Source: Escherichia coli (GTDB taxonomy: Bacteria > Pseudomonadota > Gammaproteobacteria > Enterobacterales > Enterobacteriaceae). Taken from it: DNA of 64,000 nucleotides. Below, piece by piece: positions 42,001-54,000 of the stretch. The DNA is taken from the NCBI RefSeq assembly GCF_003991155.1, contig NZ_CP031297.1. One strand, 5' to 3'. Made by a program: the position numbers. Position 1 is the first letter of the stretch. Each line of letters opens with the position of its first letter.

Positions 42001-45000
42001 TGGCCTGTTCAGCAAATCACTGCCCACGGGCGGATGGAGCTGACAGATCTGATTGGACATCACGCTCTGGTCGCGGAAAAGCCTGGTCAACCACCTGTCA
42101 TGAAGTTCATGTATGGACCTCTGGCAGTCGCTATGCGTGAAGGTCATCTGCTCCTCATCAACGAGGTGGATTTGGCCGACCCTGCCGAGCTGGCTGGTCT
42201 CAACGATGTCCTTGAAGGGCGTCCCCTTGTGATCGCTCAGAATGGCGGGGAAATCATCAAGCCGCACCCGATGTTTCGTGTGGTCGTTACTGGTAACTCT
42301 ACGGGGTCCGGTGATGCTTCTGGTTTGTACCAGGGGGTGATGATGCAGAACCTCGCAGCTATGGATCGCTATCGTTTCACCAAAGTAGGGTATGCGGATG
42401 AGGAAGCTGAACTCAGCATTCTTGGCCGTGCTACTCCGAAACTTCCGGAAAATGTGCGGAAGGGAATGGTTCGGATTGCTAATCAGGTCCGCAAACTGTT
42501 TCTTGGCGAAAACGGTGAAGATGGTCAGATCAGCGTCACCATGTCCACTCGGACGTTGGTGCGTTGGGCGAAACTGTCTCTAGCGTTCCGTGGTGCCCCA
42601 AATGCTCTTGAATACGCCTTGGATCAAGCTCTGCTTATCCGTGCGGCCAAAGAGGAGCGTGAAGCCATCCTGCGTGTTGCGAAGGATGTGTTCGGGGACC
42701 AATGGCGCTAAGAGGTGACGCATGAAGAAAAATGACTGTTTGTGCCGTCGTTACACTGCTAAAGAGTGGGGCAATGACGAAACCACAATAGAAGTCTTCA
42801 TTGGCTACAAGTTGCTCCGGGAGCCCAGCTCCTCGGAGCCAGGCCAATTCACGATGGTCGAGCTACGCCGAACCGTCACTGATGGGAAAGCTGAAAATTG
42901 GTCTGAGACAAAGCTCGAAGGACCTTTTGAAGCTAACGGCCCAGACACGATCCCAATGTCCTACAAGGACAAAGAAAGCCAGTATGTGTCACAGTTTCTC
43001 AGCCAGGGGTACACCTTTCTGGATGAGGTGCTGGTAAACGCAGAGACACAGACGGTGCTGGAAGGGGGGAATGTTTCAGCCGGACAAACAGCCAGCTTGG
43101 GATCTCTCAACTGGCTGTTATCTCCGCCCTCTGAGTTACCTCCAGGTGACATAAACCTCTTCAAAGGTTTTGTTGCTGGGGTTTTTGCCAAAGGAGCCGG
43201 TTTAATCGGCTTTGAGGTTGCTCGGAGCGAAGGCTCAAATGACTTGCTACCCAGTGTGCTGATGCGTACTGACAGCGGTTATGAGCTTGGGGTTAGCACT
43301 GGACTAGGCGAAAACACTATCCATCCAGCTACGCTGGAAGGCGCTGGTGAACTCCGCCCGGAACATGGTCACAAACCCCTGCTGATGTTGGTTTACCTGC
43401 AACAGCGTTTCGCGGATGACTTTTCAAACGTAGAGAAGCCGCTGGTGGCATTCTGTGATGAACAGGGTGATACCTTCGACTACGAGCGTTTTGATTCACT
43501 AAAACCCCTCATTGAACGGTTTGGTTTCAGCTACGACGAAGTAAGAGCAGATGCAGAAAGGCTTGGCCTTGTATCTGAGCTGATTCGCCTGGCAGAGATC
43601 GACGCCGAACAAGAGGATCACTTTTTTTAACCCTTACGGGGGCTTGCTCCCCGAAAGGGGCGTTGGCCCTCTCCAAATAACTTGGAGGTCATGATGTCTA
43701 AAGGCGTCAACAAAGTAATTCTGGTCGGTAATCTCGGTTCTGACCCGGAAATTCGCTACATGCCAAGCGGCACTGCCGTTGCCAACTTCAACGTTGCAAC
43801 AACGGATACGTGGCGCGATAAGCAGTCTGGCGAGCAAAGAGAGCATACTGAGTGGCACCGTATTGTGCTTAAAGGTCGTTTGGCGGAAGTCGCTGGTGAG
43901 TACCTGAAAAAGGGCTCCCAAGTCTATCTCGAAGGGAGCAACCGCACCCGGAAGTGGACTGACAGCCAACAAATCGAGCGCTACACCACCGAAGTACACT
44001 GCGTTGAAATGCAGATGCTTGGTGGTCGTGGAAATGCACCTCAGGACAACTCTCAACGTGCAGCGCCCCAAAAAGGGCAACGTACAGGAGCCGGTACGCA
44101 ATCTGCTCCTGTGCAGCAATCAGCACCGCAAGGTGGTATGGGCGGAGGCTATGGTCCCGCTCCTGATGGCTGGGATGATGACATCCCGTTCATGCGGCTG
44201 CACCACTTGGCTGGCGGGTAACACCGCCAACTCTTACTAAACCCCACGGGGGCACTCATGCCCCGAGGGGGTCATGGTGTCCTCAAACCGTTCATTCGTG
44301 AATTGGAGAAACACCATGTCTGATAACAAATCTCTTGTAACCCGTATCGCAAGCCGGTTTGGCGTGGACACCCGAAAGTTCTATGAAACTTTGAAGGCGA
44401 CCGCATTCAAGCAGCGAGATGGAAGTGCCCCGACCGATGAGCAGATGATGACGCTCCTGATCGTGGCTGAACAGTACGGTTTGAACCCTTTCACTCGGGA
44501 AATCTATGCGTTTCCTGACAAGCAAAATGGGATCATTCCGGTAGTAGGTGTTGATGGTTGGAGCCGCATCATCAACGAGCATCCCCAGTATGATGGCGTC
44601 GAGTTCGTGTATTCGGACAAGATGGTCAGAATGCAGGGGGCGAAAGTTGACTGCCCTGAGTGGATTGAATGCGTGATTTACCGTAAGGACAGATCTCGCC
44701 CTATCCGCATCAAGGAGTTCATTGATGAGGTGTACCGTGAACCGTTTCAGGGTCAAGGTCGCAATGGTGCTTACACTGTTGATGGCCCCTGGCAAACGCA
44801 CACCAAGCGTCAACTCCGGCACAAGTCGCTGATCCAGTGTTCTCGTGTCGCATTTGGTTTCTCTGGTATTTATGACCAGGATGAAGCTGAACGCATCCGT
44901 GAAATGGAGCAGGCATCGGCCATTAACCCGGCTATTGCCAATCTCCCTTCACCATCTCAAGTTCAAAGCCAAGAGCCTTTGGCTATTGAGCACAAAGAGC

Positions 45001-51000: not shown

Positions 51001-54000
51001 GCTCCGCAATCGCAATAAGGAGTCCCTATGAAAAACCTATCAGCTTTGGAAGCAGTTCTTGACTACGACAAACCTTCTCGACGTTTTCTTGATGAGCTCA
51101 ACGAAAACCAGATGAAGGATTTGTCCGGGGAAATCTTCGCCAAGCTCTACTGGAGCAAGCGTAATCCCCAGTGGTACGAGAAAGACACCAATCGGCTGTT
51201 TGCACGACTTCGTTGGGTTCAGCGCATCATCAAGAAGCGCTTGAAAACCGGCAAGGTTAAACCTGAACTGACAGAAAATGGTTCAGTGATGGAGCGCTTC
51301 AACTTCCCTTATGGTGACACTCTCGATTTCTTCCATCGGTACTTGCGACATCCCAAATGGGAGGTTGTGTATCAAGAATCGGGGTGCAGTGCCTTTTGGA
51401 AAAATGAAGCAACGCTTGAGCTATGCACCTACTGCGAAGGTGATGTGGTCATGATGAAGGCTCCTGATGAAGCAACCTTCTTTCGTGATTGCAATCGCCT
51501 TAGCTGGTGGTATGCAGATAACGCTTGATCTTAATCCCTAACCAGGGGCGAACCGGCCCCTGATGGGAGCATGGTGCGCCCCATCTATGATGGAGGACGC
51601 CATGTTCAAATCATCAGTATGCTCCTACGAAAACAGGGGGCCTTACGGAAACAACAAGTACCGAGGCAACTGCTCGGGCTTTATCGTTAAAGACTTCATT
51701 GAGTCTTACATGAGAAAGCCGAACGGGCTGGTGGCAGACCCAAGTGTTGGGGGTGGCTCTAGCATCGACGTTGCCAATGAACTTGGTGTCCGTTTCAAAG
51801 GGACAGACTTGCATCAGGGGTTCAACCTGTTGCGGGATGACTTCCTTTCGTTCCTCGGAGAGCCTGCACACCTGATCTGGTGGCACCCTCCTTACTGGGA
51901 CATGATCCAGTATTCAGGTAAGCAGTGGGGCGAGCCCAACAAATGGGATATGAGCCGCATGAATTTGCCTGAGTTCGTTGAAGCCCTTGAGCTGGCCGTT
52001 ATGAATATTCATGACGCCTGTGAGCGAGGAGGGCATTACGGAATCCTCATGGGAAACCTGAGGCGCGATGGGGATTATTTCAACCTGTCCAGCCTTGTGG
52101 AACGTATCGCACCTGGGAAGCTGGTGGATGAGATCATCAAAACACAGCACAACTGTGTGAGTGACCGAACTCAGTATTCCGGGAAGCTGGTGCGTATCGC
52201 CCATGAAAAGCTGTTGGTGTTTCGTCGTAACGACGTTGCCTCATCGCTCTGTCTTCTTGCTGCCGTACACCGTCGAGCAACCAATATGGTTTCGACTACG
52301 TGGAAAGCTGCAATACGCCGAACCCTACAGGGGAAAACGTTGAAGCTGGAGCAGATTTACAAAGAGATTGAACCCTACGCAAAGCATCGAGAGAACAACC
52401 ACTGGCAAGCAAAGGTCAGGCAAGTTCTTCAAGATGCCAGGTTCTTTATTCGCATCGAGGTAGGTGTCTATGCACTTGCTGAGTAGCCCAACCGGGGCGT
52501 GACATCCCGGAGGGGATTGGTCGCGCTCATCAACAACAAAGGAGCGTGACCATGAACGTACAACTTCAAGCCAGCAACAATGTGCTGTTGGCGCAAATCG
52601 AAAGCAAAGGCCTCACTGTTGAAACGCATTGTCGCAGTGGCTTTTGTGGCATGTGCCGGGTTCGTCTACTCGAAGGTCAAGTGGCTTATGACGAGACGCC
52701 CATCGCATTTGTCAAAGAAGGGGAAGTGTTGGTTTGCTGCGCTAAAGCAAAAACCGATGTGACCTTGGAAATTTAACCCATCCGGAGGAGCCTTTCCTGC
52801 GGGTGGGGCTCCTCTATCCATTACGAGGAGAAACACTATGTCTATCAATACCAAAGTTGAACAAATCGCATACGGTCATGCTACCGCTCTAGTGCTCAGT
52901 GAACTGGGCCAACAAGAGAATTGGTGCAAGGCTTATGAGTATTTGTCTGAGTGTGTAGAACGGGGAGACGAACCTGAGGATCTGGTCGTTTGGCAACCGT
53001 TTGAGCACTGGGAATGGAAAGACATTCTGGAGCAGATCGAGAGCGAAGCCGAGTCTCTGCTTTCGACTATTAAGTCGGTTTTAGGCTTGGCCCACAAAGG
53101 CATCATTCAGTCAGCAATTGACTGCTCTCTGGATTCGGACATGACCCAGCTTGACCTGATTGGAATGGTCGAGCTCGGAAGTGAAATCGAAGATGGGGAG
53201 TGTGCTGGAGGTGGCTATGCAGCTTAACCGATACACGGCCAGGGAGTCTGACAAAAGTCGGATACTTCGGACCATAGGCTGGTGCAAGCGCAACCACCTT
53301 ACACTTGCCGGTCTTCCATACGAGGACAATCTTGCAGGAAGTGATGGGATCAGCATAGAGATCATCACTCCTCCTGGTATGTCGCGGGAAATGTTGGAGC
53401 AAGCCGTCAGAGAGGGGTATTCAGAGCGAGATGTCGTAAGGCATCGCATTCTGGAGTGCCCTGTCGGTTGGTTCATGGAAGCTGATGGCAAGGCATTTGA
53501 TCATGAAGTGTTCCACGATTACGTGGTGGCTCATGGTTATGGCGAACCTTCCAGCGAAGCCTATGAGCTGGCGGAGCGGTGGTTCTGGCAGGGCAACGAT
53601 TATGCGTTGATAGCTGCGGAAATAGTTGCTCGTGATCTTTGTGTTCGTGATGACGAAGATGAGGACTGATCCTATGGATGCTGTAGCGCATATAGCAGCA
53701 GATAACCTTGTACCGGCATGTGGAGGTGCAGAGAAGCCGTTTACCGTTAGTGGTAGACAGTGGCTTTACTGCTATCACCCAGCCAGTGGGAGGCACTGCT
53801 ACTTAGACCTCGATAATGACCGTCCAGTCTGGCATCGAGGATTTCATCCTGCTTTTCATCCTGAGCTTGAGTTCGCTGATGAAGCTGAGTTGCTTCGACC
53901 AGTTGAGCGAAAGCCTGACCATGAAGAGCTGGAGGATTTTTACTTTTAACCCACGGGGCCGCTCTTCCTGATGGGAGACGGTCCTCCATTCTCAAAGGAG

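Follow-up and report, generated by a model that had tools for sequence, protein, structure and literature searches.

IncC (IncA/C2) plasmids and the SXT/R391 elements are among the main vehicles of multidrug resistance, and the hde operon serves survival of restriction and CRISPR cleavage in new hosts. Here, we analyzed a 64,000-nucleotide stretch of an Escherichia coli contig (NZ_CP031297.1; NCBI RefSeq assembly GCF_003991155.1), the whole of which is called the window below. The window is an IncC conjugative plasmid backbone, with 100% identity to many such plasmids from Klebsiella, Escherichia, Salmonella, Vibrio, and other genera. Five of the proteins that it encodes, in and downstream of the hde operon, end in a tail made up of an acidic run followed by two or three aromatic residues at the C-terminus.

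All five genes lie on the plus strand. The first, vcrx090 (42722-43630), encodes a 302-amino-acid anti-restriction protein without a Pfam hit, which ends ..AEQEDHFF (tail codons 43604-43627). It is followed by bet (44316-45305), for a RecT/Redβ-type annealing protein (Pfam RecT) ending ..EEGAEGSYY (45276-45302), and by exo (45368-46378), for a YqaJ/λ-Exo-type exonuclease with a C-terminal extension (Pfam YqaJ) ending ..PEEVETFYW (46349-46375). The fourth, vcrx094 (46578-47855), encodes a DUF3150 protein (Pfam DUF3150, 4e-91) ending ..TDDDGDYFF (47826-47852), and the fifth (53674-53949) encodes a 91-amino-acid protein with no assigned function and no Pfam hit, ending ..HEELEDFYF (53920-53946). 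Each tail has three to five Asp or Glu residues within its last nine. These C-termini were reread identically to the initial annotation, and its statement that the five proteins are unrelated agrees with the Pfam results (none, RecT, YqaJ, DUF3150, and none, in gene order).

In the reference IncC record, traN is followed by two hypothetical genes on the opposite strand, two small hypothetical genes, an AAA family ATPase gene, the 302-amino-acid hypothetical gene, ssb, bet, a lambda-exonuclease family gene, the DUF3150 gene, and a gene for a VWA domain protein. The published hde operon comprises vcrx089-vcrx093, from the AAA ATPase to exo (Roy et al. 2020, PMC7498323). In that study, vcrx089-090 protected the incoming plasmid against type I restriction; the protection was lost in Δ(vcrx089-090) and regained only with both genes expressed in the recipient, not in the donor, and ssb-bet-exo were assigned to the repair of CRISPR-Cas double-strand breaks (PMC7498323). 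A transposon sequencing (TnSeq) screen for CRISPR evasion depleted vcrx089-093 only, with vcrx094 and vcrx095 not among the depleted genes (PMC7498323). The placing of all five tailed genes in one operon by the initial annotation holds for part of the set: by reverse transcription-PCR, cDNA primed in vcrx094 spanned vcrx087, vcrx089, and bet, so that a common transcript reaches vcrx094 (PMC7498323), whereas the fifth gene is found some 5.8 kb beyond this, on the downstream side. Our search of the literature on DUF3150, vcrx090, and plasmid acidic-aromatic tails found no published description of the tails.

Tails of this kind occurred on exactly 5 of the approximately 66 long, nonoverlapping open reading frames of the window. 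Among all 682 six-frame open reading frames of at least 30 amino acids, just two more had di-aromatic ends, both short, basic, and apparently spurious. About 92 kb of identical IncC plasmid (NZ_CP020056, positions 1-50000 and 95000-136975, in partial overlap with the window) held no further annotated tailed gene. The background was taken from 78 unrelated phage loci, where 6/1476 genes (0.4%) had a di-aromatic C-terminus; at this rate, finding 5 or more among 66 genes has a binomial probability of 7e-6, before the acidic run is required. This low background, together with the all-or-none pattern among protein families given next, excludes chance or composition as the origin of the tails.

For the family analysis, 80 DUF3150-centered genomic loci were fetched and 1920 genes were clustered, with family percentages calculated over 82 loci. 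Tails were carried by 99% of DUF3150 proteins, 92% of Exo proteins, 100% of Vcrx090-like proteins, and 11% of Bet proteins; the remaining families of at least five members were 0% tailed, save one 10-member family at 10%. The Vcrx090-like proteins formed two clusters, each 100% tailed: the 302-amino-acid family and a 256-amino-acid SXT/R391-type family, encoded just upstream of DUF3150, whose SXT-type members end ..NYYF. The two are homologous (hhalign probability, 97.5%; E value, 5.6e-12), which makes a Vcrx090-like protein a core member everywhere. The Bet tail was limited to an IncC-like clade, and SXT Bet ends ..QPLAS.

The initial annotation had proposed a comparison of the tails in homologues, and in orthologues they are kept down to about 25 to 35% identity. 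Every full-length protein among 17 Vcrx090 homologues ends [DE][DEN]xFF or xYF, and nearly all of 120 DUF3150 proteins, with identity down to 38%, end in an acidic run, a variable residue, and [FYW][FW]. Among 122 unique DUF3150 C-terminal 10-mers, the last residue is F in 96 and W in 15, and 101 have at least two acidic residues at positions −10 to −3. For Exo, 69 of 150 representatives of 50%-identity clusters were di-aromatic, and many more had variants ([FY]xW, or an aliphatic residue before F). Homologues of the 91-amino-acid protein keep the tail as well (..EDFYF in locus L002, ..ENLYW in L009, ..EDFYW in L169 and L195, and ..DPFYW in L011 and L198). The consensus core is [DE]-[DSN]-x-[FYW]-[FW]-COOH, with E or D at −5, D, S, or N at −4, a variable residue at −3, F, Y, or W at −2, and F, less often W, at −1. 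SXT/R391 tails (..PSSFYF, ..PNSFYF, ..SQNYYF) are barely acidic; calling the tails acidic is thus right for all five in the window, and across elements the acidic run depends on the clade. As read from these alignments, the constant part of the motif is the aromatic pair at the free C-terminus.

In the AlphaFold2 model of DUF3150, made from a 39-sequence alignment, residues 1-290 are folded and residues 290-425 are disordered (predicted local distance difference test [pLDDT] mostly <50), except for a helix at 348-361. The Vcrx090 model (pLDDT, 84) is disordered over its last seven residues (296-302; pLDDT <50). Neither of these two models puts the tail of the protein on its own domain. The 100 to 150 residues preceding the DUF3150 tail could not be aligned among homologues; the tails are the ends of variable, predicted-disordered segments in which the linker varies and the last residues are kept. 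Taken on these sequence patterns, the tails are probably repeated instances of a single, conserved short linear motif that terminates a flexible segment, and not a chance likeness. The DUF3150 protein also has an internal acidic-aromatic motif (DLDEDIDNFF, 47616-47645; consensus DDxDIDxFF), predicted as a short helix inside the disordered stretch, and its homologues P0073, P0076, and P0084 stop just past this internal motif, without a terminal tail.

Tailed sets are found alongside a four-gene module that encodes a CobS-like AAA+ ATPase, Vcrx090, DUF3150, and a CobT-like HExxH/VWA protein, and the AAA+, DUF3150, and VWA genes accompany nearly every one of them. The module was found on IncC plasmids, on MOBH plasmids of Proteus, Moellerella, and Klebsiella, on Pseudomonas and Azotobacter plasmids, in SXT/R391, and in genomic islands, with three to eight tailed proteins per related locus. 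A CobS-like AAA+ homologue was present in 76/81 DUF3150-centered loci, and the pairing of an AAA_5/CbbQ_C ATPase with a VWA protein is conserved in plasmid, integrative and conjugative element (ICE), genome, and phage loci. Locus L090, from a Pseudomonas plasmid, encodes an Exo homologue but no module within 20 kb, and this Exo is untailed; λ Exo ends ..GEQWR (taken from a primer sequence; PMC3118119). A scan of viral contigs with a VWA profile gave 78 loci with the AAA+/CobT-like pair and no DUF3150, in which di-aromatic ends were at background; these loci rule out the AAA+/VWA pair as sufficient for tails.

The motif is also found on unrelated small proteins, among them the 91-amino-acid protein of the window and two ..ESFFF proteins encoded downstream of the VWA gene in L170. 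The largest set was in L082, a phage-like contig (IMG/VR IMGVR_UViG_3300022696_000130; positions 2555-4220 and 16625-17922) with AAA, DUF3150, and VWA genes together with genes for a phage-type replication initiator, a DnaB-like helicase, and a primase. Its DUF3150 protein ends ..SAWF, and seven further small proteins with no assigned function end WF or WFY, giving eight tailed proteins in all. No transfer genes were found in the 20 kb read of its 38 kb, and a viral scan with its DUF3150 protein recovered only the L082 contig itself. Three other L082 proteins, including the DnaB-like helicase, end ..PF.

The L082 set bears on one of the roles that the initial annotation had offered for the tails, that of a translocation signal read by the coupling protein TraD, by which the tailed proteins would be delivered through the conjugative pore. 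It is true that all clear plasmid and ICE cases are on MOBH/MPF-F type elements and that the proteins act early in the recipient. Known VirB/D4-type translocation signals are positively charged, however, and the tails are acidic or neutral; L082 has its eight WF-tailed proteins among phage replication genes, without transfer genes in the part read; and vcrx089-090 complement from the recipient and fail to do so from the donor (PMC7498323). We regard translocation as extremely improbable. The resemblance to the coupling protein itself is of another kind. The acidic tail of F-plasmid TraD, with its terminal Phe, docks in a pocket of TraM; that is a single pair at the relaxosome-coupling step, whereas the tails here belong to proteins of recombination and anti-restriction whose action is in the recipient.

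Tail type differs between elements (FF/YF, WF, WxW, or MF/LF/VF) and agrees within an element between the unrelated Exo and DUF3150 proteins. In L085 both end AAGFWF; tails within other loci were ..DSWF, ..DAWF, and ..GAWF (L074), ..SSWF and ..EFWF (L080), ..ANMF and ..FDMF (L087), ..LLMF and ..IMLF (L088), ..FVVF and ..IMVF (L089), ..SFYLN, ..NYYL, and ..GAYIP (L016), SGYF and SGYF (L223), ..SAVF and ..NAMF (L220), and ..SAVF and ..NALF (L215). Pairing was then permuted over 47 unique pairs of Exo and DUF3150 tails, which come from two nonhomologous proteins; the BLOSUM score of the last three residues was 8.30, against 4.89 ± 0.52 for the shuffled null (p<5e-5; p<1e-3 in a smaller first set of pairs), with related elements counted as independent, so that the true significance is lower.

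At the DNA level, the L085 tails are identical at 16/18 bases; the match reaches no further than the tail codons, synonymous differences occur within it, and in L046 and L074 the DNA flanking the tails differs. Together, these three features rule out recent long-tract gene conversion as the cause of matching tails, and micro-conversion may lie behind them. Tail types also differ among elements found in the same host genera (YFF/FYW on IncC versus VVF/MLF on Klebsiella and Moellerella plasmids). The agreement within elements argues for a partner shared by the tailed proteins, and the different tail types of elements that share hosts argue that this partner is private, that is, encoded by the element.

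The same difference bears on the proposal that the tails mimic the SSB (single-stranded DNA-binding protein) tip and dock on a host hub, such as the SSB-interacting enzymes, the oligonucleotide/oligosaccharide-binding fold of SSB, the β-clamp, or a protease adaptor. The SSB tip (..DDDIPF) is a hub peptide for more than 12 genome-maintenance enzymes and lies at the end of a disordered linker. The tails follow the same design, in which a disordered linker ends in an acidic run, a hydrophobic or aromatic residue, and a terminal Phe with its free carboxylate, and the tailed proteins act on DNA ends and single-stranded DNA. The likeness noted in the initial annotation is sound in these respects and stops short of the I-P-F consensus: Pro is not one of the frequent residues at −2, an aromatic position (F, Y, or W) throughout the tailed families, and the acidic run is dispensable in SXT/R391. 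Position counts likewise gave no conserved Q or L (−5 and −4 or −2) as in the β-clamp motif QL[SD]LF. The topology is reversed as well, with many tip carriers and one inferred partner here and one carrier and many pockets for SSB. SXT-type tails are barely acidic, and phage Exo plus CobT-like loci without DUF3150 are untailed although they face the same hosts. With tail types that vary among elements of the same host genera and match within an element, a host hub fits poorly as the partner, and we consider SSB mimicry quite unlikely.

The SSB of the plasmid itself (ssb, 43691..44221, plus strand) holds DDDIPF internally (44174-44191), followed by nine residues, MRLHHLAGG. Since SSB partner binding normally needs the free carboxylate of the terminal Phe, the tip of the plasmid SSB, as its sequence reads, may be masked or in need of processing, and masking by the extension would free such pockets for mimics. 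The extension past DDDIPF is conserved in L004, L019, L186, L191, and L195; the SSB ends were ..FMRLHPLEGG in L004, ..FARLHYMAGG in L019, ..ALHWMEGG in L191, and ..RLHYLEGG in L195, and the SSB of a Pseudomonas plasmid ends ..IPFAPISRLLLNII. The element's own SSB or recombinase, also named as a possible partner, is disfavored by distribution, as several loci in which tails occur yielded no homologue of SSB or Bet.

In the reading we favor, the tail tags proteins for docking on a hub that the element itself encodes, with the AAA+/VWA motor-adaptor as the likeliest candidate, and we judge the case for this reading to be evenly balanced. The idea of a shared docking peptide in the initial annotation gains support in that the motif is conserved, sits at a disordered end, and co-varies within elements; its list of partners left out the AAA+/VWA/DUF3150 module. 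The tag would tether a changing set of proteins to one element-encoded receptor, with Vcrx090-like proteins and DUF3150 as clients nearly always, Exo usually, and Bet and small accessory proteins in some lineages. The receptor would be formed by Vcrx089, a CobS/MoxR-like AAA+ ATPase acting as the motor (41743..42711, plus strand; untailed; Pfam AAA_5, 7e-16, and CbbQ_C, 3.8e-15), and Vcrx095, the CobT-like HExxH/VWA protein and leading receptor candidate (47940..49736, plus strand; untailed; Pfam CobT, VWA, and CobT_C). [quoted passage not shown]

By analogy with those relatives, an acidic residue or the carboxylate of the tail could complete metal coordination at the MIDAS, with the aromatic pair filling an adjacent pocket. 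When the plasmid enters a new host, such a machine would collect or remodel the proteins that counter restriction and repair breaks. From these patterns we infer a physical docking, its receptor, and the manner of binding. In NorQD, the MIDAS is the presumed client site, and the C-terminus of NorD touches NorQ at its post-sensor-1 loop (PMC13036017). In the cobalt system, the CobN client lies between CobT_N and the VWA domain, near the MIDAS; CobT_N, whose fold is peptidase M48C-like, attaches to the lid of CobS, and a shaft preceding the VWA domain reaches into the AAA+ pore (bioRxiv 10.64898/2026.07.21.739949).

The plasmid pair has the same AAA_5/CbbQ_C and CobT-like linker/MIDAS VWA content as the MoxR/CobS-VWA class as a whole (CobSTN, NorQD, CbbQO, and Rea1/Midasin). 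In that class, the VWA subunit presents the client to the motor, keeping it at or close to the MIDAS for remodeling by the AAA+ ring. DUF3150 and Vcrx090 are without counterpart in that class, and the setting here is plasmid defense evasion rather than metal insertion. We know of no MoxR/CobS-VWA member that recruits several clients via a common C-terminal tag. The closest analogue in logic is found in phage T7. The tails of T7 gp2.5 (SSB) and gp4 (helicase-primase) end in Phe and dock on T7 DNA polymerase, and the terminal aromatic residue with its free carboxylate is essential. As here, unrelated proteins of one element carry flexible acidic tails with a terminal aromatic residue; in PDB 6P7E the DTDF peptide of gp4 is placed on gp5, and a basic patch of the polymerase is bound by the tail of gp2.5 (PMC12339929). 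The IncC case differs in having at least five tailed proteins (eight in L082) with two or three terminal aromatic residues instead of one, in a tail type that shifts in step across proteins between elements, and in that the window showed no DNA polymerase encoded by the element; the hub here is probably the candidate AAA+/VWA machine.

Several observations weigh against the AAA+/VWA hub, in addition to the lowered significance of the permutation test. Co-variation is not absolute, in that L169 mixes CFF, AYF, FYW, and WGAW. Azospirillum Exo proteins are without a tail despite the presence of the module. In L017 (uncultured gammaproteobacterium, 6193-8139), DUF3150 (..DGSFF) and VWA genes occur with no CobS-like AAA+ found nearby. 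Since the TnSeq screen listed neither vcrx094 nor vcrx095 as depleted, CRISPR evasion does not need them. Finally, tails go with the module version that includes DUF3150, not with the AAA+/VWA pair on its own, so that the receptor could be DUF3150 or Vcrx090; DUF3150 was in every tailed locus, which most of the searches ensured by design. Upstream in L017, we noted genes for a ClpB/ClpA-type AAA_2 protein and a radical-SAM-like protein.

That last point is the basis of a different account, in which the tails assemble the tailed proteins with one another. The folded domain of DUF3150 (or of Vcrx090) would be the receptor that scaffolds Exo, Bet, and the accessory proteins, and its own tail would self-associate or autoinhibit, as in SSB and T7 gp2.5. 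Besides the association with DUF3150, with its limit by search construction, the two acidic-aromatic motifs of DUF3150, one internal and one terminal, would suit a scaffold. The AlphaFold2 models leave the tails of both DUF3150 and Vcrx090 undocked, however, and vcrx094 escaped depletion in the very screen in which Exo and Bet were required (PMC7498323). We hold a DUF3150 scaffold to be unlikely.

Vcrx095, the leading receptor candidate of the AAA+/VWA hub, consists of a CobT-like N-domain, a Q/D/G-rich disordered linker, and a VWA domain. The N-domain matched Pfam CobT over residues 10-127 (E value, 5e-6) and has the motifs HEAAH (48120-48134) and EDCRIE (48201-48218); the MIDAS motif of the VWA domain is DMSSS (49221-49235). 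The closest solved relative was NorD, the CobT structure was unmatched in the PDB search, and fold searches gave no pointer to the tail binder. HExxH and the MIDAS motif were both present in 119/120 homologues. Across 191 sequences, H61-E62-x-x-H65 was essentially invariant together with N85, E88, D89, R91, and E93, and the MIDAS residues D428, S430, S432, T504, and D532 were 100% conserved. HExxH and MIDAS are common to the DUF3150-associated proteins and the CobT-like proteins of tail-less phage loci. In the DUF3150-associated subfamily alone, residues H424, F496, M506, and W511, close to the MIDAS in sequence, do not vary, a pattern that fits a specialized ligand surface without proving one. 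To judge by the motif, the HExxH of Vcrx095 may be catalytic or only a metal-binding or structural site.

The tail could also be a degradation or processing tag, with the Vcrx095 HExxH and the AAA+ ATPase, or a host protease, removing or trimming the early proteins after establishment. The near-invariance of HExxH and the downstream N..ED.RIE in the N-domain, the peptidase M48C-like fold of CobT_N, the resemblance of an AAA+ ATPase with a zinc-protease motif to the logic of FtsH, and the transient action of the tailed proteins on entry to a new host all accord with such a tag. Yet HExxH is equally conserved in phage CobT-like proteins of tail-less loci and could be merely structural or metal binding, and no proteolytic activity of CobT or NorD has been reported to our knowledge. 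A degradation tag seems to us very unlikely. More broadly, and tentatively, the four-gene module is a possible tag-directed remodeling or proteolytic machine with a private C-terminal address code. Any protein acquiring the tail might then become a client, lineages might use their own codes (FF, WF, WxW, or MF), and the machine might assemble, activate, or time-limit anti-defense and recombination proteins in the first minutes in a new host; we doubt this wider proposal more than we believe it.

If the docking tag is real, the anti-restriction pair, Bet/Exo repair, DUF3150, and the CobT-like VWA protein would be joined in one machine. It would give a first functional handle on DUF3150 and an example of a MoxR/VWA motor that chooses several clients via a portable tag. 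With the tag, sequence would suffice to predict additional clients, and the tail would be a possible target for blocking plasmid establishment.

Proteins of the Vcrx095 family end ..SLTAxAA, ..LLIAA, or ..MLLAA (49707-49733 in the window). By comparison with the C-terminus of NorD, this end may be a contact with the ATPase, and it resembles the ssrA-type ..LAA. The DUF3150 and VWA genes (46578-49736) are in the same frame, separated by 2 stop codons and 25 sense codons, and the 302-amino-acid gene and ssb are also in frame (start codons 969 nucleotides apart); both are probably coincidence. Upstream of vcrx089, a small predicted membrane protein (40633-41034) ends ..KGKELVW, and its homologues in about 10 loci keep ..LVW; another family, in L088 and L089, ends ..KEQRVW or ..KEQTVW. 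These ..LVW and ..VW C-termini are basic instead of acidic and may have no relation to the tails.

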